DNA of 64,000 bases, from positions 24,895 through 88,894 of the forward strand of contig CAYVOL010000001.1 of the NCBI GenBank assembly GCA_964453135.1, written 5' to 3'. The stretch comes from an uncultured Candidatus Saccharibacteria bacterium (GTDB lineage: Bacteria > Patescibacteriota > Minisyncoccia > UBA6257 > UBA9933). Positions 4,521 to 49,493 of this stretch are shown piece by piece (within the stretch, counting starts at the first letter, position 1; each line of letters begins with the position of its first letter). The position numbers were made by a program, and so were the translations under genes. The notes under the pieces were generated by a model. It searched no databases and had not been told where the DNA came from. It saw only the letters and a list, made by a program, of their open reading frames with translations.

Positions 4521-4755
4521 TGTCATCCTGAGTCCCCCGCCACGGCGGGGGACGAAGGATCTCGCTAAGATTCTTCACTACGTTCAGAATGACAGCGTAA
4601 GTCATCCTGAGCGAAGGCGAAGGATCTAACGAAATTTTTCTCCGCCAGTTGGCGTCCGCCGGCTGGCGGATCAGAATGACAGCTTTGGATTTCCGCTTTC
4701 GCGGGAATGACAGGCGCTAAGATTCTTCTCCGCCGGCTGGCGGATCAGAATGACA
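4521..4755 (+). repeat. Three tandem MITE core units (each ends in cagaatgaca)
   Basis: Unit boundaries near 4596 and 4682. Hairpins tcccccgccacggcggggga, gcgaaggcgaagg, ccgccagttggcgtccgccggctggcgg. Not CRISPR: the spacers are not unique and the units differ in length. Confidence 0.7.
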
Positions 4756-4896
4756 TTTTACGGACAGCGCCTCCCGTCAGTAATCAGTAAAAGATAGGGG
4801 CGGGCGGAACACATCATTTCGCCATGGCCGGAATGCCGTTGCGATAAGATATAAAAAGGGACAAAAAACTTTAATTAAGTCAAAATGGGTTTCGCA

Positions 4897-6780
4897 TTAT
4901 TGATAGCAATAATGATAGTAAAGTCGGCTACAGTTGGAATCTACTGGCTCAAAACTGGTTAATTGAACGTCTGTAAAACCAGCTGGACAGGAATACCCTC
5001 CGGTCCAAGGATTGGTTACTGCCGGTTGACACCCGCTACCGGAGATAGTCGTATACATTCCTCCAAATCTACCCGTGCTCGCCCAACGCGCGGGACCACC
5101 AGCTTGCGGAGAACCCAACCACACATCTCCACTCCAAACGGAAATATTTCCACCACTAACCGACAGTTTATTGTCCGGCGCTGTTGTTCCGATGCCGACG
5201 TACCCGTTACTTTGGTTAATATAATCGAGGCTATTTGCGAAATAAAGATCTCCTGTTGAATTGCTAATCATTAACGGTCGCAAGGTATTCCAACTCCCAT
5301 ATTGATTGCCGGAATTGGTAAGTAAAGGCATATATGTATTGACGCCATCATTTCTAATAAAAGCTCCGTAATTTCCAGATATAGCTCTAAATTGACCTGA
5401 GCCACCCCCTAAAGTACTAATGAATTCTGTTGCTGTTCTAGTAGAGCCATTGACATCTAATGTATAGCCTGGTGATGCCGTCCCGATACCCACGTAAGTT
5501 CCATTATCATATATCTGCGAATTGGTAATACTAGGCACAGTTCCCCATTTTGTAAGATAGTTTGTGGTGCCGGAAGTGTAGGTGACCGTACCCGCACCCA
5601 AACTGGTGCAGCTTCCAGCAGAAGTGACAATGCCGCCGGATATTGTAAGACCGCTGGGAGTGGTGCCTGCTGAACAGGTTAATGAATTGACGCCAGCAGT
5701 GCCGCCGCGCCGGTAATAATTGGTTGCGCCGACATTGATGTCTCCGGAAACATCAAGCTTGTAAACAGGAGACATTCCCACGCCGACATTGCCGGAAGAA
5801 TTCCAGACTCCGCTGCCCGGGAAATTAATTGTCCCGCTGAAAGTAGGGCTGGAACTAAAAACCAAAGAACCGCTGCCGGTTTCGTCGGTAATTATTGACG
5901 CTAAGTTGGCGGAAGTATCGGTGTTGAAATAAGTGGAAGACAAGCCGGCGATTTTTCCAGCGGAGGTTATTAAGTTGACATTGCCGGTGCCGAATTGGGC
6001 GGCGCCCTGGACATCAAGAAGCGCGCCGGGAGTGGAAGTTCCGACGCCGAGATATTTGTTGGTATTGTTCCAGAAAAGATTGGCGTCTCCGCCTAAAGTG
6101 CCGGCATTGTTGAATTGCACCTGGCCGGTGGAGCCGCCGGCGAATCCTGTGGGCCAGGAAGCAATGCAGGAACCGTTAAGGCAGAACTGGGTGGAGCTGG
6201 TGTTACCCGAAACTTCCAAGGGCTGGCTGGGATTAGAGGTGCCTACTCCGAAATTACCGGAGTTGTAATAAAGTTTAGAGCCGGAGGAAAAAAGGCAGGC
6301 GCTGTTGACGCATAGCCCGGTGTCGGAACGGACATAGCCGCCCAAGACGTCAAGCTTGACCCCTGGGCTGGCGGTGCCAACGCCGACATTGCCGCTCATA
6401 AGAGCAGTGGGGTTACCTTGTTTACCAATTTGTAATACTACGTTATTTCCACTATCAAAAAATTGATATTGAGTTGCATAACCGCCAGTACCGCCGGGAT
6501 TAAAACCCATCCAAGAATTAACTGAATCACCCGAAATATAAGAGGAATTCCCTAACCCAAATTTTAACGCTGATGTAACTCTCGCATTGCCATTAACATC
6601 TAATATATATTGCGGCGTCGTTGTCCCAATGCCCACATTGCCGCCGGAATAATATAAGACACCCCCCCCTGCGCCGGGAGCAGAGGAAGGAGAAGTCCAG
6701 CCGAAAACTACGGTGGCAAAAGAAACTGCTAAAATGAGGCAAGAGAATATGAAAAGGATTTTAGGAAGGGAGCGGGACAT
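4897..6780 (-). CDS. Secreted Gly-rich beta-helical repeat protein (tail-fibre-like repeats), Cys-rich C-terminus
   Basis: Signal/TM at the N-terminus. About 10 degenerate repeats of the form GNVGIGTTxPxxxLDVxG. C-terminal CxxGxxxC..C..YCY. Confidence 0.6.
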   Translation of the reverse strand: MSRSLPKILFIFSCLILAVSFATVVFGWTSPSSAPGAGGGVLYYSGGNVGIGTTTPQYILDVNGNARVTSALKFGLGNSSYISGDSVNSWMGFNPGGTGGYATQYQFFDSGNNVVLQIGKQGNPTALMSGNVGVGTASPGVKLDVLGGYVRSDTGLCVNSACLFSSGSKLYYNSGNFGVGTSNPSQPLEVSGNTSSTQFCLNGSCIASWPTGFAGGSTGQVQFNNAGTLGGDANLFWNNTNKYLGVGTSTPGALLDVQGAAQFGTGNVNLITSAGKIAGLSSTYFNTDTSANLASIITDETGSGSLVFSSSPTFSGTINFPGSGVWNSSGNVGVGMSPVYKLDVSGDINVGATNYYRRGGTAGVNSLTCSAGTTPSGLTISGGIVTSAGSCTSLGAGTVTYTSGTTNYLTKWGTVPSITNSQIYDNGTYVGIGTASPGYTLDVNGSTRTATEFISTLGGGSGQFRAISGNYGAFIRNDGVNTYMPLLTNSGNQYGSWNTLRPLMISNSTGDLYFANSLDYINQSNGYVGIGTTAPDNKLSVSGGNISVWSGDVWLGSPQAGGPARWASTGRFGGMYTTISGSGCQPAVTNPWTGGYSCPAGFTDVQLTSFEPVDSNCSRLYYHYCYQ

Positions 6781-6821
6781 TTTTTATTTATCGTTGTTTT
6801 TATTGTTATCCTGTTTTAATA

Positions 6822-6968
6822 GTCATCCTGAAAGTGTTTTTGTCATCCTGAGTCCCCCGCCACGGCGGGGGACGAAGGATCTCGCAAGATTCTTCACTGC
6901 GTTCAGAATGACGGGGTGGATTCTTCTCCGCCAGCTGGCGTCCGCCAGCTGGCGGATTCATAATGACA
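6822..6968 (+). mobile_element. MITE-like element, copy 4 (core, partial duplicated 5-prime end)
   Basis: gtcatcctgaaagtg partial, then tgtcatcctgagtcccccgccacggcgggggacgaaggatctcgcaagattcttcactgcgttcagaatgac...ccgccagctggcgtccgccagctggcggattcataatgaca. Confidence 0.7.
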
Positions 6969-7169
6969 TAAGAAAAGTCGTAAATTTATTTTTTAGTTTA
7001 TTAATAATTTTACTTCTGCTGAAAATGAAAATCAATGAAGAGTTATCCACATAAGCAATATCAAAACCCGTTTAATTTGACAGAGCCGCTGTTGAAAAAT
7101 AACAAAAAAGAGGCGAGAGCCGTTAAAAGCACTCTCGCCCCTGATACAAAAGAACTATAATCCCCCCCC

Positions 7170-8252
7170 TTAGTTTGCCACCAACGGGGCTGGACCCATC
7201 GGCGGCGAGAATAAAGGTCCGTTTGGAGGCAAAGGAGCCGGTCCGCCTCCTGGAAGTCCAGGGGAACCCGGAGGACCAATGGGACCTTGAGCGCCAACGG
7301 GGCCTTGTGAACCGACTGGGCCTTGCGGGCCTGCCGGACCTTGAGCGCCAGTTGCGCCCCCTGGCCCCTGAGGACCTGTCGAGCCCTGGGCTCCTTGAGA
7401 TCCTTGCGGACCTCTAAATCCTCGCGGACCCTGAACGCCTTGCTGGCCTTGGGGACCTTGCGGACCTACTGGGCCGCGAGGGTGATGAATGATATGGATG
7501 GAGGATGCTGCCGCTCCTCCGTAAATCGCGGCCTTATCAATGTCGCTCGCCGCCAAAAATGGGACGCCGCACTCCTCCGGAAGGAAGGCTTTTTCAAAAA
7601 TTCCTCCCAGAAGAGAACCACCGACCGCGGCTAACGCACCGATTGGATGGCTCATCGCCATGGCTCCGCCAAATCCGGCAAGCCCTCCCAAAGTGCCGCC
7701 CCATCCAGAGGGAGTACATCTTTTTTGCCAGGCATCTCTTCGCTCCAGGGCGTAATTCACCGCTGCCACCACATCTGCCTGAGTAATCTGCGGCTGTGGC
7801 GGAGGATACTGGTAAATAGCTTGAGGCGGTGGCGACGCTGGCATCGGCTGATACGACGCCGCTGCCGGCTGTTGAACAACTGCTTCTTGCGGCCGCGGAC
7901 GCGTTGCTGAAACCGCCCTGTCCTCAATGAAATTCAAAAACACTCGATTGAGAATAGGGTTGCCGCAGGCACATACTTTGTCCGCCAGCCAACGCTCTCC
8001 GTCTTTACGCATAGAGACTTCTGTTCCGACTGGCAACCAGCCAGTGGAAATTTTTCCGCTGGCGCCAATTATTTTCACCTCGGCATCCTCGTCCAACTTC
8101 ATGGTCGGGAGGTTTTCTTTCTTACAAAGGTCCGGCGCCACCGGGTCGGCGCCGATGTTAATATATTTTTTCCCGGTTTCCGCGGCAACGGGCGAAATCC
8201 CCGTCGCGGCTAATGCAACTATGGCAAGAGCAATGACACCCATTCTTCTCAT
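7170..8252 (-). CDS. Secreted collagen-like triple-helix repeat protein (GC-rich, SD-preceded)
   Basis: Signal peptide [25 protein letters not shown]-terminal run of G-X-Y triplets ([22 protein letters not shown]...). Strong SD aaggaggagggg upstream. Local GC is well above the neighbouring genes. Confidence 0.65.
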
Positions 8253-8366
8253 TCCCCTCCTCCTTTCTTGTTTTAATATATATAATTGTGAAGAGCAATA
8301 TTGACGATCAGATGAATCGCCAAAGCACTATCTTTTTACCATAATTTTACTAACTTGTCAAAAAAA

Positions 8367-9053: not shown

Positions 9054-9203
9054 AAAAACTCAGAACTTGGATCTTAAAACTTAAAACGTATATTCTATTA
9101 TACCAAAGTTGACAACCCAAGAAAAGAAAGTTAACATTTTAATTGGTCTTGCAACAACTAAAATAACATTTTAAGCACGAGGAAAAGGAGGTGATGAATT
9201 TGG

Positions 9204-9803
9204 TTGTTTCTTGTTAAATATAGAGAAAGAGATTGGACATTCGCGAACGAAAAACAAAAAGCGGAACAATCACGGACAAGGAGATGGCCAATGGAGATGG
9301 GCGATGCGTCAGCAATGCCACCAGGAAGTGAAAAAGAGCTGTGCTGCAATCCCGATGTAGCGATCGTCCGAGAGCGTCTATCAGCCCTGCTGAAGTACAA
9401 ATCTAAGACACCAATACTATTCTCTCTGCAACCAGTGGGCAACAAATTCCGATTTGCCATAAGATCACTGCGCGCCAACAACCTCGGTATCCCACCGAGA
9501 ATAGTGGCAAGAAGACTTTGCGACATCTCTGTCCAAGTGGCCAAGCATTTACTTCCCGAATACCATCACGAGGACCCCGAATTCCTCGTTGTTCGCAGAA
9601 ATTTAATGGCAATGCTGAGCAAAAAGATTCAGGAACCGGTAATAACGCTCGGCAGGATAGAAAATAAGTTCCTGCTGTTCATACACAACGTGAACCTGGA
9701 AATTCCGTCGGGAATAGTAGTAGCGGATAGTCTTTGGGGCATTTACATTCAGGCGGCCCAACATCTGTTTCCCGATGAAGGCCTCCAACCTGCCCTCGCC
9801 TAA
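9204..9803 (+). CDS. ORFan hypothetical protein (TTG start, SD ggaggtg, own terminator)
   Basis: GC-richer codon usage than its neighbours. Candidate promoter TTGACA-17-TAACAT at about 9102-9130. Terminator at 9838-9877. Confidence 0.4.
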   Translation: MFLVKYRERDWTFANEKQKAEQSRTRRWPMEMGDASAMPPGSEKELCCNPDVAIVRERLSALLKYKSKTPILFSLQPVGNKFRFAIRSLRANNLGIPPRIVARRLCDISVQVAKHLLPEYHHEDPEFLVVRRNLMAMLSKKIQEPVITLGRIENKFLLFIHNVNLEIPSGIVVADSLWGIYIQAAQHLFPDEGLQPALA

Positions 9804-9837
9804 CCAGCGCGCCAACTATATTTCTTTACCCCCCTTC

Positions 9838-9877
9838 CAAGCCCCTCTCCACAACAACGGAGAGGGGCTTTGTTTTT
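9838..9877 (+). terminator. Rho-independent terminator
   Basis: aagcccctctccacaacaacggagaggggctttgtttttt. Confidence 0.6.
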
Positions 9878-9884
9878 TATTGAA

Positions 9885-26396: not shown

Positions 26397-26663
26397 CTAC
26401 TTTTCTTCCACTCTTTTTTCTTTTTTGCCTACGCTCCTCCTCCTTTGTTTAAGAGCCTCCTGTAAATCGGCAACCTTCTCCCGCGTCGCCAGATCCGCCA
26501 TTTCTTCCTCGGCTTCTGCCAAGCCCTTCTCCGATTTCTTGAAAATCCAAAAGAAGGGTTTACTGGAGAAAGCCGGATACACCACCTGGCTGACCAAAAA
26601 CGACGCCAGCACAAGGACCAAGACGATTTCTGCGACTTCCACAACTGCCAGCATCAATATCAC
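26397..26663 (-). CDS. Small single-pass membrane protein (operon partner of SPFH)
   Basis: 88 aa, N-terminal TM, charged tail. 4-nt overlap with the upstream transglycosylase gene. Confidence 0.35.
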
Positions 26664-27337
26664 CCCCTTTCCACTTCTATCTTATTGGCTTTCTTTACCA
26701 CTTTCTCCCCGTACCTCCGCAAATGCCTTTTCCAGTGCGAGCCGGCGTAATACTTAGCCGCCGCGATCTTTTCAGCGCGAAACGAACCAGTGTCCGCTCC
26801 GGCGTTTCTAAGATAAAGCGCGGTAGCCAGGAAGGCGTCTCTGTGTCTCCATGGAGAGGGATGTTTGCCTGTAAGAAAAGCGATCTGGCCGCTGTATTCC
26901 GCCCAAGTTGACGGGATAAACTGCGCCGGCCCCATTGCCCCTCCATAAGTTCCGTCGCGGGCAATGGGACAAGAAACCGGAATCGTATCTGGATTCAAAC
27001 CCGATTCCCTGACAATTTCCAGAAATACAGGAATATCGCGCGTCGGGTGCATAGCAGTTTTATAATTGCACTTACCCATGCTTTTCCCCAACGTTGACTC
27101 GCGGTCCAAAACCGCCAGAATCAAGGCGGCGCGAACTCCGGTTTTCGATTCGGCAAACTTGGCGAATTTATAAGCGTCTTCAAACTTAAGCTCTCCGCCG
27201 CCGATAAATTCAAAAGTCTTATCCACCCTTTCCTTTTCTACCCAAATCATAGTCGCCATAAAAGCGACAATAATCACAATTAAAGCCGCCAAAGCGGAAG
27301 CTACCTTTGGGAATATCTTCTTGGCAATTGTTGTCAA
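26660..27337 (-). CDS. Membrane-anchored MltB-like lytic transglycosylase (SLT_2-type domain)
   Basis: [14 protein letters not shown], the family-3 lytic transglycosylase motif. SD aggagg plus TTG start. Confidence 0.6.
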
Positions 27338-27586: not shown

Positions 27587-29005
27587 CTAAGCGTTTAAGG
27601 TATTTATATCCTGCTGGAATTCGTTGGCTTTCGTGACGGCTTTTTCTCCGTAGCTCCACAGATAATTTCTCCAGCGGGCGCCGGCGTAATATTTAGCCGC
27701 GGCAATTCTCTCGGCGTTAAACGAGCCCGCATCCGCTCCGGCATTTTTCAGAAAAAGAGCGGTGGCCAAAAAAGCATCGATATTTTTCCAAGGGGACGGA
27801 GGATTGTCGCCGGTAAAAGAAGCTATTTGGTCGCTGTATTTTGTCCAGGTGGAAGGAAGAAACTGCGCCGGACCCATTGCGCCGCCGTAAGCGCCGTCGC
27901 GAGAAATGGGACAAGAAACCATGGTCGTGTCCGGATTCAAATCAAGCGCTTTGGTGATTGCCAAAAAAATGGGAATGTCGCGCGTCGGATGCATGGCGTC
28001 TTTATAATTACATTTCCCCACATTTTTCCCCATAGCGGACTCGCGGTCCAACACCGCCAAAACCAGGGCGGCGCGCACGCCGGTTTTTGATTCGGCGAAC
28101 TTGGCAAATTTATACGCGTCTTCAAATTTCAGTTCTCCGCCGCCGATAAGTTCAAAAATCCTGCTTCTTATTTGTGCAGCAGTTTTTTGTGTTTCCGCCA
28201 GAATTTTTTTATACTCCGATTCTTTCCCTTTGGTAACTGTCAGCAGATTATTTTTTTCTTCTTTTGTTTTTTGGATAGAATTTTTTTGCTCTTCCTGGTA
28301 GCTTTTCAAAACCAGGGCGTCGTTTTTTTTCAAAGCCAGCTGTTCTTTCTGGTCCATCAATTCGCCGCGCAAACTGTTTAATTCCTGGACCGCCGCCCCT
28401 AATCTTTCCTGAGTGCTGTTAAGATGGCTTATTTCGTTAAAAGCGTCGGAGATTTTATTATTGGCCAAAATAACCGTGGCGATGTTCTCATTGTTTTTCT
28501 GATACATTTCCTGAAGAAGGAGAGAAATTATTTTTTTCTTGACGGTCATCTTGTCCTCAGTAGAGGTAATTTGGGATTGGGTCTGAACAAGGTCTTTATC
28601 CAGTTTTCGCAAGGTTAAGGTGACGGCTTTTATCTGCAGGCTTAATTTGGCAATTTTGTCGTTTAATTTTTTAATTTCCGACTGCAGGCTGTTGCCTTGT
28701 TTTTTGTATTCTCCGATTTTCTTTTCGTATTCATTCATCTGGCTTTCTAGCTGAGCCAGTTGAGCTTCCAGGGCTTTTCTTTCTTCGGAATTATTGGCTG
28801 ATTGAGCAGCCATAACTCCTCCGCTCGTGGGGGCCAGCACAGAATTAAGCACGAAAGAAGCAATAAAGAACAAAACAAAAAAAACGCTTAAGATGTTTTT
28901 AAGCGGCACTCGGATTACTTTTTGATAATTAAGATTTATCTGGCGAGGGTGATTATAATAGGAACTTCCTTCTTTTTTGATATCCCGAAGAATTTTTTGT
29001 CTCAT
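27587..29005 (-). CDS. TM anchor, ~250-aa coiled coil and C-terminal MltB-like lytic transglycosylase domain (paralog of 26660..27337)
   Basis: The C-terminal 190 aa align to the upstream paralog at about 70-75% aa identity ([14 protein letters not shown]). The N-terminal region is heptad-rich (LQSEIKKLNDKIAKLSLQIKAVTLTLRKLDKDL...). Confidence 0.65.
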   Translation of the reverse strand: MRQKILRDIKKEGSSYYNHPRQINLNYQKVIRVPLKNILSVFFVLFFIASFVLNSVLAPTSGGVMAAQSANNSEERKALEAQLAQLESQMNEYEKKIGEYKKQGNSLQSEIKKLNDKIAKLSLQIKAVTLTLRKLDKDLVQTQSQITSTEDKMTVKKKIISLLLQEMYQKNNENIATVILANNKISDAFNEISHLNSTQERLGAAVQELNSLRGELMDQKEQLALKKNDALVLKSYQEEQKNSIQKTKEEKNNLLTVTKGKESEYKKILAETQKTAAQIRSRIFELIGGGELKFEDAYKFAKFAESKTGVRAALVLAVLDRESAMGKNVGKCNYKDAMHPTRDIPIFLAITKALDLNPDTTMVSCPISRDGAYGGAMGPAQFLPSTWTKYSDQIASFTGDNPPSPWKNIDAFLATALFLKNAGADAGSFNAERIAAAKYYAGARWRNYLWSYGEKAVTKANEFQQDINTLNA

Positions 29006-47063: not shown

Positions 47064-49493
47064 ATGAATCTAATTATCGTTGAGTCTCCGGCAAAAACAA
47101 AAACCATAGCAAAGTACCTCAAGGGCGATTACGTTGTGAAAGCCAGCGTGGGCCATATTCGCGACTTGCCGAAAAACAACAAGAAAGCCATTGACATTGC
47201 GGGCGGTTTCACGCCGCATTATGAAATCATCCCAGGAAAAGAAAAAGTCATCGCCGAACTGAAAGAAACAGCCGGAAAAACAAAAGAAATTTTATTGGCC
47301 ACTGACCCGGACAGAGAAGGAGAAGCCATTGCCTGGCACATCATTGAGGCATTAAGCCTCGGAAATTCAAGATTCAAGATTAAAAATTCAAAACTGCCGA
47401 GCATTAAGCGGATTGTTTTTAATGAAATCACGGAATCCGCTGTCAAAGAAGCGTTAAAACATCCGCGAGACATTGATGTGAACTTGGTAAAAGCGCAGGA
47501 AGCGCGCCGCGTTCTTGACCGATTAGTGGGATACGATTTAAGCGGATTGATCTGGAAAAAAGTGCGCTACGGATTGTCGGCCGGCCGGGTGCAATCTCCG
47601 GCTTTGCGCATTTTAATGGAGAAAGAACGAGAAATTCGCGCTTTTAAGCCGGAAAATTACTGGGTGATAACCGGCGAGTTTGAAACCAAAAATAACGATA
47701 AAATAATTCTTATTTGCGAAGAAGAGCCGCGGGATAAAAAAGAGATGGAAAGAATAGTGGAAACGGCGAAGAAAAATAAGTGGCAAATAATCAATGCGAC
47801 GCAAACGGAGGCAAAACGTTCTCCCCGTCCTCCATTTATCACTTCCACGCTCCAGCAGGCGGCCAGCTCCCGCTTGGGAATGGCGCCCAGCCGCACAATG
47901 TCTTTGGCTCAAAAACTTTACGAGCAGGGATTCATCACTTATATGAGAACCGACAGCGTCAATATCAGCAAGGAAATTCTGCCGCAGATTTACGGAGTAA
48001 TAGAAAAACGCTTCGGCAAGAAATATCTCGCTCCGCGCGCTTACGCGGCGAAAAGCAAGACCGCCCAGGAAGCGCACGAGGCAATCAGGCCCAGCCGCCC
48101 GGATTTTATTCCGCAAAATTTAGGCGGCCAAGCAAAAATAACCGACAAACAGCAATCATCTCTTTATCAATTAATCTGGGAAAGAACTGTTGCTTCGCAA
48201 ATGGCTGACGCGAAAATTTCACGGACAAAAATCTCCGCCAATATTTATGATCAGCATGATATCTCTGGTTATCATGATATTTCTGATCACCATGATGTTT
48301 CTAATCACCATGATATTTCTGGTCATCATAATGTTTCGGATCATCCTAATATTTCTGGTCATCCTGAGCGAAGCGAAGGATCTCAAAAAGATTCTTCGAC
48401 TGCTTCGCTCCATCAGAATGACAATAATAAAATCCCCAACTTTTCCACCACTGGCAGCATAGTCATTTTTGACGGCTGGCTGGCCGCCGACCCTCTCAGC
48501 CGCGGAGAAAATGTTGAACTGCCCGCGTTAAAAATTGGGGAACCGTTAAAACTTCTTAACATCAGCGATGAAGAAAAAACCACTGAGCCGCCTCCCCGCT
48601 ACACCGAAGCCGGACTGATTAAAGAATTGGAAAAGCGGGAAATCGGCCGTCCCAGCACATACGCGACTATCATAAAAACCTTATATGACCGCGGGTACAC
48701 AATTAAGGAAGGCAAGGCGCTGAAGCCGACGGACACCGGCGAAGTAGTCAGTAATTTTTTGGAAAAAAATTTTTCCGCTTATATCAGCGATTCCTTCACC
48801 GCGGAAATGGAAAATGAATTAGACGAAATCGCCGGCGGCAAAAGGCGCTACGAAAAAATGTTGGGCGATTTTTATAAGCCGTTCTCGCAGGCGGTGAAAG
48901 ACAAAGAAAAAACCGCGGAAAAATTAACCAACCTCGGCGAAGCGGACAAAGAACACAAATGTCCGGTTTGCGAAGGGCCGATGGTGATAAAATTATCGCG
49001 CAGCGGAAAATTTTTAAGCTGCGCTAAATTCCCCGAATGCCAGGGAGCACGAAAAATCGACGGCGCCGCAATGGAAGGCCCGAAAGAAACCGGCGAAAAA
49101 TGTCCGCAATGTAAAGAGGGAGATTTAATTGAGCGGGAAGGCCGCTTTGGCAAATTCATCGCCTGCTCCAACTATCCCAAATGTAAATTTATAAAAACCA
49201 GCGCGGAAGAAGAGGCGAAGAAAAAAACCGGTGTCGCCTGCCCGGAGTGCCAAAAAGGATTGTCCGCCGAAGCCTCGGCAAAGACAGGCGAGATTATGGA
49301 GCGCCGCGGACGCTTCGGCTTGTTTTATTCCTGCTCCAATTATCCCAAATGCAAATTTATTATGAAATCGCGGCCAACAGGAAACATTTGTAAATTATGC
49401 AAAGCGCTGATGATGGAGGGAACTAAAACAATTCCCGAACGCTGCAGTGATAAAAATTGCCCCAATTACAATCCGTCAAAACAAAAGAATTAA
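47064..49493 (+). CDS. topA: DNA topoisomerase I with C-terminal zinc ribbons and an in-frame repeat insertion
   Basis: Toprim start MNLIIVESPAKTKTIAKYL...HIRDLP. Several C4 zinc-ribbon repeats (CPVCEG...C..C; CPQCKEG; CPECQKG). Confidence 0.9.
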   Translation: MNLIIVESPAKTKTIAKYLKGDYVVKASVGHIRDLPKNNKKAIDIAGGFTPHYEIIPGKEKVIAELKETAGKTKEILLATDPDREGEAIAWHIIEALSLGNSRFKIKNSKLPSIKRIVFNEITESAVKEALKHPRDIDVNLVKAQEARRVLDRLVGYDLSGLIWKKVRYGLSAGRVQSPALRILMEKEREIRAFKPENYWVITGEFETKNNDKIILICEEEPRDKKEMERIVETAKKNKWQIINATQTEAKRSPRPPFITSTLQQAASSRLGMAPSRTMSLAQKLYEQGFITYMRTDSVNISKEILPQIYGVIEKRFGKKYLAPRAYAAKSKTAQEAHEAIRPSRPDFIPQNLGGQAKITDKQQSSLYQLIWERTVASQMADAKISRTKISANIYDQHDISGYHDISDHHDVSNHHDISGHHNVSDHPNISGHPERSEGSQKDSSTASLHQNDNNKIPNFSTTGSIVIFDGWLAADPLSRGENVELPALKIGEPLKLLNISDEEKTTEPPPRYTEAGLIKELEKREIGRPSTYATIIKTLYDRGYTIKEGKALKPTDTGEVVSNFLEKNFSAYISDSFTAEMENELDEIAGGKRRYEKMLGDFYKPFSQAVKDKEKTAEKLTNLGEADKEHKCPVCEGPMVIKLSRSGKFLSCAKFPECQGARKIDGAAMEGPKETGEKCPQCKEGDLIEREGRFGKFIACSNYPKCKFIKTSAEEEAKKKTGVACPECQKGLSAEASAKTGEIMERRGRFGLFYSCSNYPKCKFIMKSRPTGNICKLCKALMMEGTKTIPERCSDKNCPNYNPSKQKN
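48247..48423 (+). repeat. In-frame insertion in topA: 18-bp tandem repeats encoding x-H-H-D-I-S hexapeptides, followed by a 66-bp MITE core (gtcatcctgagcgaagcgaaggatctc...cagaatgaca)
   Basis: Six 18-nt units (ggttatcatgatatttct / gatcaccatgatgtttct / ...). The last unit merges into ggtcatcctgag, the MITE 5-prime end. The MITE core at 48358-48423 is 66 bp (22 codons). Confidence 0.8.

Follow-up and report, generated by a model that had tools for sequence, protein, structure and literature searches.

The 64,000-nucleotide stretch of contig CAYVOL010000001.1 analysed here (the whole 64-kb stretch is referred to below as the window) carries two neighbouring open reading frames (ORFs) on its minus strand: ORF A (4897..6780, 627 aa) and ORF B (7170..8252, 360 aa). 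We consider it likely that these are two separately transcribed chromosomal genes for exported envelope proteins of a probable candidate phyla radiation (CPR) bacterium, and that they do not form a mobile cassette. A CPR origin is plausible in view of homologues named as CPR and DPANN proteins and of one GTDB locus labelled Saccharibacteria. On this reading, ORF A encodes a fibre protein resembling the mosaic adhesive trimers (MATs) of Bdellovibrio, and ORF B encodes a member of a rare protein family with a collagen-like stalk. A first-pass annotation of the same DNA had placed both ORFs at these coordinates, which we confirmed, and had taken both products to be secreted. Each protein does begin with an N-terminal export signal, which makes a cell-surface role reasonable for both. 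By analogy with known surface fibres, the two proteins are plausible host-attachment gear.

Caulton et al. (2024) showed that MATs are displayed on the surface of the predator Bdellovibrio (PMC10769870), which uses them to grip its prey. The MAT family is split into S74 and non-S74 (NS74) subgroups; motifs of the VGIGT type form the capping loops that edge its trimeric β-helix modules; and the tips, which are known to include S74, TNF-like, C-type lectin and novel sandwich domains, have been swapped in evolution (PMC10769870). The ORF A shaft (aa 40-570; 5071..6663, minus strand), delimited by its motif positions and by alignment with Bd2133 (PDB 8ond), contains seven capping-loop motifs of the form VGIGTxxPxxxL. 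These lie at aa 49, 132, 177, 244, 332, 430 and 528 (starting at nt 6636, 6387, 6252, 6051, 5787, 5493 and 5199 on the minus strand), the copy at aa 332 being degenerate. The regular expression [VLFI]G[IVL]G[TAMS]..P...[LV] matched ORF A six times and a looser form seven times, and outside ORF A we found no match to the motif in a six-frame translation of the 64-kb window. The Gly-rich repeats of the GNVGIGT type described in the first-pass annotation are therefore present, but they number seven and not about ten. Gly makes up 16% of the protein, which is also rich in Ser, Thr and Asn.

We searched the PDB with a profile built from ORF A and 50 of its homologues. The best match was to Bd2133 (8OND, E=6.9e-22); after Mu gpS and T4 gp34 came Bd1334 (7e-12), Bd3182 (2.6e-11), Bd2439 (3.5e-10) and MyRF (2.4e-5). 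In the profile alignment, the GNVGIGTxxPxxKL motifs of the ORF A family superpose on the motifs of Bd2133. In a pairwise BLAST alignment, aa 510-570 of ORF A also correspond to the final shaft module of Bd2133 and its junction with the tip (E=1e-5, 42% identity). A check for a C-terminal Peptidase S74 domain, proposed at first pass, came out negative: Peptidase_S74 (PF13884) had no Pfam match in ORF A at E<=1, and ORF A has no SDxxxK motif. ORF A thereby differs from fibres of the S74 (endosialidase) type, whose C-terminal S74 domain carries SDxxxK and which do occur beside a relative of ORF B (locus L001, below). Given the profile match, the aligned motifs and the lack of S74, we conclude from sequence comparison that ORF A is a non-S74, MAT-like member of the phage-tail-fibre-like trimeric fibre superfamily. 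ORF A and the NS74 MATs of Bdellovibrio, such as Bd2133, are alike in having an export signal, a long shaft with repeated VGI(G/N)TxxPxxxL motifs, an alignable last shaft module, a non-S74, swappable C-terminal tip, and signs of mosaic evolution. They differ in length (627 aa in ORF A versus ~1000 aa), in the tip, which in ORF A is an MABP-like repeat that is not among the described MAT tips, and in the host, which is probably a monoderm CPR bacterium for ORF A but a diderm predator for the MATs.

One module of the ORF A shaft (aa 402-519; 5224..5577, minus strand) corresponds to the trimerisation knob of T4 gp34 and Mu gpS. Pfam PF21446 (Gp34_trimer) matched aa 402-505 with E=3.4e-17 (63.4 bits; gathering threshold 27), and a PDB sequence search matched aa 425-519 to Mu gpS (5yvq) and T4 gp34 (4uxe) with E ~1e-9. 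PHROG searches of ORF A likewise returned tail-fibre families. The first-pass view of the ORF A repeats as typical of phage tail fibres or β-helical surface proteins agrees with these results, the repeats being the capping-loop motif of the solved trimeric β-helical fibres of Bdellovibrio. This single module is what ORF A has in common with the C-terminal region of T4 gp34 (4UXE), Mu gpS (5YVQ) and PF21446. Unlike the T4 and Mu fibres, ORF A has an export signal and lies in a chromosomal housekeeping context, with no partner chaperone or baseplate genes. Its hydrophobic N-terminus (aa 1-27; 6700..6780, minus strand) has a Kyte-Doolittle peak of 2.76 and is modelled by AlphaFold2 (AF2) as a helix at aa 5-25, and homologues show signal ends of the AxA↓(Q)W type. 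We interpret this segment as an export signal, either a cleaved Sec signal peptide (with a possible cleavage site at VFG↓W) or a membrane anchor. The class III signal of type IV pilin-like proteins (G/A↓FTLxE) is absent from ORF A.

The C-terminal end of ORF A (aa 571-627; 4900..5070, minus strand) is a Cys-rich tip, RFGGMY…NPWTGGYSCPAGF…C…C, that resembles one repeat of the MABP β-prism. Outside the signal region, ORF A has ten Cys arranged as five close pairs, and four of the ten fall within the last 44 aa, in keeping with the Cys-rich C-terminus reported at first pass. A phmmer search of the PDB with the tip matched MPEG1 (perforin-2; E=9.8e-5). With a two-sequence tip profile, MPEG1 was matched at E=1.1e-6 and the next match stood at 0.45; the match recurs on all three motif copies of the MPEG1 MABP β-prism domain. 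The tip recurs in one further protein, P0035, which is equal to ORF A in length and architecture. Pfam has no family for the tip, and a word-index homologue search with aa 536-627 gave no matches. The motif FGGxY…NPxTGxxSCPxG[YF] is common to the ORF A tip and the MABP/P2 β-prism of MPEG1 (PDB 6SB1, 6U23). MPEG1 carries three repeats in a single chain, whereas ORF A has one per chain and lacks a MACPF domain. If ORF A is trimeric like its solved relatives, we infer that a trimer of its tips could form a true three-fold β-prism; were this so, a fold with pseudo-threefold symmetry would have been rebuilt, in the single-repeat tip, as a genuine trimer. The MABP domain of MPEG1 binds acidic (negatively charged) membranes and lipids (PMC6753088).

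From these comparisons we infer that ORF A trimerises, is displayed at the cell surface, ends in a β-prism tip and functions in adhesion. After export by means of the N-terminal signal or anchor, three ORF A chains would intertwine to form a shaft of β-helix or β-prism modules, each edged by one of the seven VGIGTxxPxxxL capping loops, with one gp34/Mu-S-type knob in the shaft. The shaft would end in a small disulfide-rich tip to which each chain gives one MABP-like repeat. This tip would be the likely ligand-binding end, directed at a lipid or glycan of a partner cell, and tips and shaft modules would be exchanged through recombination over evolutionary time.

Several observations weigh against this picture. 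A phmmer search with ORF A alone found no Bdellovibrio fibre at E<=1; the link to MATs comes from the family profile, the pairwise BLAST alignment and the common motif, and not from single-sequence phmmer. The AF2 monomer model of ORF A, made with a homologue alignment (A3), is too poor to judge the fold (mean predicted local distance difference test score (pLDDT) 56.8, predicted template modelling score 0.29) or to confirm the trimeric β-helix and the β-prism tip. A Foldseek search with this low-confidence model ranked Bdellovibrio fibres first, which we treat as a lead only. All 21 Bdellovibrio MATs have a conserved, β-rich N-terminal domain of ~130 aa (PMC10769870), and since the first capping loop of ORF A begins already at aa 47, a domain of this type is probably absent. 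Lastly, the match to MPEG1 is short (~40 aa) and driven by a Cys/Gly/Pro motif, individual repeats having weak E-values, and an MABP domain has three Greek-key repeats per chain, whereas ORF A has one (aa ~571-612).

A large protein database contains 959 homologues of ORF A, although the exact protein forms a singleton cluster. Named homologues come from Parcubacteria, Buchananbacteria, the 'Patescibacteria group', Aenigmarchaeota, Woesearchaeota and other phyla, and several are annotated as 'tail fiber domain-containing protein'. We counted features in the best 120 of the 959. The median number of capping motifs was six, and 19 proteins had a W-x-x-P…P start directly after the hydrophobic N-terminus. 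An S74-like SDx[RK]xK motif was present in 21, a Peptidase_G2-type tail in 14 and a Cys-rich end in 11. Prepilin class III signals were found in three (P0014, P0106 and P0110); these proteins start with AFTLIEIL or GFSLAEL and represent pilin-fibre fusions. Several ORF A homologues match Shufflon_N/PilV.

Whole-length identity of ORF A to any homologue did not exceed 44% in multiple alignments, and the self-match (P0001) was the only BLASTP match with coverage >90%. Local identities were far higher: two Parcubacteria proteins match aa 220-314 at 71-89%, a third protein matches aa 323-388 at 63%, and a fourth matches aa 413-543 at 61%. As judged from these alignments, ORF A is a mosaic whose segments are 60-89% identical to different proteins, and such apparent module shuffling is a pattern typical of tail fibres and MATs. 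GC content at third codon positions (GC3) also varies within the gene, from 0.317 in the gp34-type module (window 5221-5580) to 0.61 at aa 201-300 (5881-6180). Together with the local identities of 60-89%, this contrast hints at recent module exchange. IMG/VR has 23 viral contigs that carry short modules related to ORF A, the highest identity over such stretches being 71%. The Cys-bracketed segment TCSAGTTPSGLTISGGIVTSAGSC (aa 366-396; ~5593-5685) is near-identical to the C-terminal part of P0052, which is labelled as an Aenigmarchaeota archaeon; this likeness suggests that modules may be shared between CPR bacterial and DPANN archaeal fibres.

ORF B has a different architecture. It begins with a Sec signal peptide, identified by hydropathy (aa 1-24, …PVAA↓E; 8181..8252, minus strand, as for all features of this ORF), and continues with a conserved β domain, KYLxIGADPV … GWLxAGxEV … CxCGNPxLN (aa 29-105; 7938..8168), that is apparent from the family alignment (A2) and was modelled by AF2 with pLDDT 94-98. 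Next comes a four-helix region (aa 158-256; 7485..7781; pLDDT 70-86), in which two of the helices (aa 184-199 and 204-222) are hydrophobic, have glycine zippers and lie between C179 and C228. There follow 26 uninterrupted GXY triplets (aa 260-337; 7242..7475), recognised both by run count and by Pfam Collagen (PF01391; 42.3 bits, cut-off 27.2). The protein ends in a Pro-rich tail of 23 aa (aa 338-360; 7173..7241) with the family motif GPxPLPPNGP, defined from alignment A2. The collagen repeats are thus as uninterrupted as the first-pass annotation had stated, but the tract makes up 22% of ORF B, where a third had been given, and the Pro-rich tail comes after it. A Foldseek search with the ORF B model found no significant fold match in the PDB or BFVD.

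Relatives of ORF B are few. A word-index search with its 258 non-collagen residues returned one, P0123, at 68% identity; this closest relative has ~10 GXY triplets, compared with 26 in ORF B. An exhaustive search of 1.84 billion representative proteins identified 36 relatives, and a scan of the GTDB species representatives, which do not include the genome of the window, identified one locus with a reduced ORF B alignment; it is labelled Saccharibacteria. Family members have a signal peptide, replaced in several of them by a lipobox (LxGC), and have in common a domain of ~80 aa, a Pro-rich linker and the GPxPLPPNGP tail. The Cys-flanked glycine-zipper region occurs in a subset of members, being kept in P0124, P0132, P0135, P0138, P0149 and P0156, and collagen-like triplets occur in only 3-4 members. 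Going by their motif, the lipobox variants show an extracytoplasmic location for the family.

Matches of ORF B to known collagen-like proteins involve the GXY tract only. NCBIfam models for Scl and Lcl scored 48.2, 39.4 and 37.6 bits (cut-offs 325, 400 and 500, respectively), and the PHROG matches were restricted to the same tract. Like Scl1 and Scl2 of Streptococcus, Lcl of Legionella and BclA of Bacillus, ORF B has a signal peptide and a non-collagen domain followed by a GXY tract. Unlike them, it has no LPXTG anchor and no C1q-like or Lcl C-terminal domain, and its N-terminal domain and glycine-zipper region are its own. By these comparisons, ORF B is a collagen-like repeat protein that falls outside the Scl, Lcl and Bcl families. 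We propose that ORF B is exported by the Sec pathway and would consist of the β domain, a P/Q-rich linker, the glycine-zipper pair, which may act as a membrane hairpin or bundle, a (GXY)26 tract that would form a triple helix ~22 nm long, and the Pro-rich tail.

The strong Shine-Dalgarno sequence attributed to ORF B at first pass can be read directly from the DNA: AGGAGGAGG lies at 8256..8264 (minus strand), 3 nt 5' of the ATG. Sequence and predicted folding indicate an intrinsic terminator 3' of ORF B (7095..7142, minus strand), in which a 12-bp GC-rich stem is followed by the U-run UCUUUUUUGUUAUUUUU. Since this terminator lies between ORF B and ORF A, the two genes are probably transcribed as separate units. 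The flanking genes have housekeeping functions and encode, according to Pfam, a sigma-70 family factor, RNase Y, PCMT, DnaJ, DnaK and GrpE. We found no phage genes and no pilus genes among the neighbours of ORF A and ORF B, and no transposase or integrase near the locus.

To place ORF B in context, we compared the window with other loci that carry members of its family. The metagenomic contig L006 has the same gene order as the window, namely a 335-aa gene, DnaJ, a 152-aa gene (150 aa in the window) and PCMT, with protein identities of 31%, 49%, 38% and 59%, respectively, and an ORF-B-family gene lies two genes past PCMT. In L001, L004, L005 and L007, the genes beside ORF-B-family members encode secreted DUF11/fn3-like or S74-fibre proteins. 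In each of the four other loci whose downstream gene can be seen (L001 3142-3732, L004 2007-2639, L005 3323-5524 and L007 7954-9060), the gene next after the ORF-B-family member encodes a secreted DUF11/fn3-like orthologue, the orthologues being 32-56% identical to one another, and in L001 an S74 fibre gene lies directly upstream. The DUF11-like gene has no homologue in the window, where ORF A takes its slot. Comparison of synteny and neighbours across L001 and L004-L007 thus shows a neighbourhood of surface-protein genes that varies, with the ORF-B family as its constant part. The adjoining genes for large secreted proteins suggest an envelope or stalk role for the family.

Palindromic repeat elements lie on both sides of ORF A. 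One REP-like (repetitive extragenic palindromic) nested cluster is downstream of ORF A and upstream of RNase Y (4521..4755), and a second lies between ORF B and ORF A (6822..6968). The two contain a common 45-nt block with 100% identity and fold far better than shuffled sequences (z -5.7 to -8.4), with no strand preference when both strands are folded. The first-pass annotation had described these clusters as miniature inverted-repeat transposable elements (MITEs) that bound each of the two genes, with a triple element at 4521-4755. Both clusters are real, but the first comprises two complete units and one half unit, and ORF B has a cluster on one side only, as there is no element in the gap upstream of it (8253-8366). 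In general the elements are 60-90 nt long, mostly intergenic, and end in terminal inverted repeats, GTCATYCTGA … TCAGRATGAC. The window contains 29 copies of the GTCATYCTGA core (4.05 expected), and the elements occupy eight sites; they are widespread and not specific to the ORF A/ORF B locus. In being short, multi-copy, strongly folding, mostly intergenic and bordered by terminal inverted repeats, they are like MITEs and like repeats of the REP and bacterial interspersed mosaic element (BIME) type. Unlike typical REP sequences and MITEs, they show no target-site duplication on reading the flanks of both clusters, no RAYT-type (REP-associated tyrosine transposase) or other cognate transposase was seen near the locus, and Rfam has no family for them. 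One copy is translated, as GHPERSEGSQKDSSTASLHQND, within a topA-like gene (47064-49493, plus strand). There it forms part of an in-frame insert at 48241-48422 that consists of six 18-nt tandem repeats, encoding His/Asp-rich hexapeptides, followed by the REP-like element, and that splits the Topoisom_bac domain in two.

From the flanking elements, the first-pass annotation had suggested a mobile or recombinogenic cassette, and it had described ORF B as GC-rich and foreign-looking. On this explanation, the two genes would form a MITE-bounded unit acquired by horizontal transfer. The identical 45-nt block on either side of ORF A fits this explanation, as do the mosaic similarity and heterogeneous GC3 of ORF A and its position in a slot that holds an orthologous DUF11-like gene in four related loci. 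However, with eight sites among ~37 intergenic gaps, ~2.5 genes are expected to be flanked on both sides by chance, and two are: ORF A and RNase Y. Double flanking is thus at chance level, RNase Y is bracketed in the same way as ORF A, and another copy of the element is in frame in topA. For these reasons, we rejected a MITE-bounded cassette; nor is there a target-site duplication, transposase or integrase nearby to support one. The composition of ORF B also argues against acquisition. Its overall GC content is 0.58, and the excess lies at codon positions 1 and 2 (0.68 and 0.57), owing to Gly, Pro and Ala codons; GC3 is 0.507, compared with 0.482±0.048 for 35 other genes. Foreign origin by GC was accordingly rejected: with a genome-typical GC3, and with a neighbourhood of DnaJ, the 150-aa gene and PCMT that is kept in the distant relative L006, ORF B does not look foreign. 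Taken together, we regard a mobile cassette as improbable. Even less probable, in our view, is a prophage or tailocin origin, in which ORF A, and ORF B perhaps as well, would be left over from such an element or still function in it, as a true tail fibre and a collagen-like tail fibre. The Gp34_trimer domain, the PHROG tail-fibre matches of both proteins and the related modules on viral contigs would be consistent with such an origin, whereas virion tail fibres do not carry an N-terminal export signal of the kind present in ORF A. The PHROG matches of ORF B are confined to its GXY tract, and its non-collagen part places it in a family of cellular proteins, some of them lipoprotein variants. 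We rejected a prophage origin on the grounds that the neighbours are housekeeping genes (RNase Y, PCMT, DnaJ, DnaK, GrpE and the sigma factor) and that no phage genes are nearby.

An alternative of another kind accepts ORF A as an envelope protein but not as an independent host adhesin: it would be a structural component, such as an S-layer-like or spacer fibre, or the tip protein of a type IV pilus. No host-interaction organelle of Patescibacteria is better documented than the type IV pilus (PMC11665869), and the three homologues with prepilin class III signals (AFTLIE), together with the several matches to Shufflon_N/PilV, connect the family to pili. ORF A itself lacks the G↓FTLIE motif and adjoins no pilus genes, and the solved structures closest to it are of fibres that stand free on the cell surface and bear adhesive tips. 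We therefore consider this alternative unlikely, and favour the reading of ORF A and ORF B as separate chromosomal genes for a MAT-like fibre and a rare-family envelope protein.

Beyond type IV pili, the means by which ultrasmall episymbionts (Patescibacteria and DPANN) recognise and hold their hosts are largely unknown (PMC11665869). The list of MATs from other taxa in the MAT paper has no CPR or DPANN entry (PMC10769870), and our literature search found no paper tying MATs or tail fibres to Patescibacteria or DPANN. The large exported 'tail fiber domain' family of Patescibacteria and DPANN has the same shaft architecture as the Bdellovibrio MATs, with tips that vary across the family: S74, Peptidase_G2, several Cys-rich modules and, in ORF A, the MABP-like repeat. 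Its members are concrete, structurally interpretable candidates for host-range determinants, although the practical value is limited while the organism is uncultured. A broader proposal, which we put forward as speculative and rather unlikely, is that episymbiotic CPR bacteria, and DPANN archaea, would rely for host recognition on fibres of the MAT type that derive from phage tail fibres, are exported by the Sec pathway and can exchange their tips, in parallel with Bdellovibrio. In this proposal, the ORF A tip would be a 'split' MABP β-prism, put together from a single repeat of each chain, that binds a lipid of the host membrane. The ORF-B family would serve as a conserved partner in the envelope, or as the base, for a variable surface-protein slot, which in this genome is filled by the fibre.

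Some further observations concern the surroundings of these genes. A gap of ~830 nt separates PCMT from the 150-aa gene in the window (9054-9884), whereas the same two genes abut in L006. The gap contains an opposite-strand 199-aa ORF with a TTG start (9204-9803) that has no Pfam family, and Rfam yields only a terminator-like hairpin there. Near the ORF-B-family genes of L006 (4016-7888) and L007 (10190-12582) are genes for large charged proteins with predicted membrane segments; they have in common a C-terminal block with 40% identity. Pfam has no family for them, and the window encodes no homologue. Elsewhere in the window, two SLT_2 lytic transglycosylase paralogues lie in tandem (26660-27337 and 27587-29005), with DNA repeats that are 73-82% identical at a spacing of ~940 nt.

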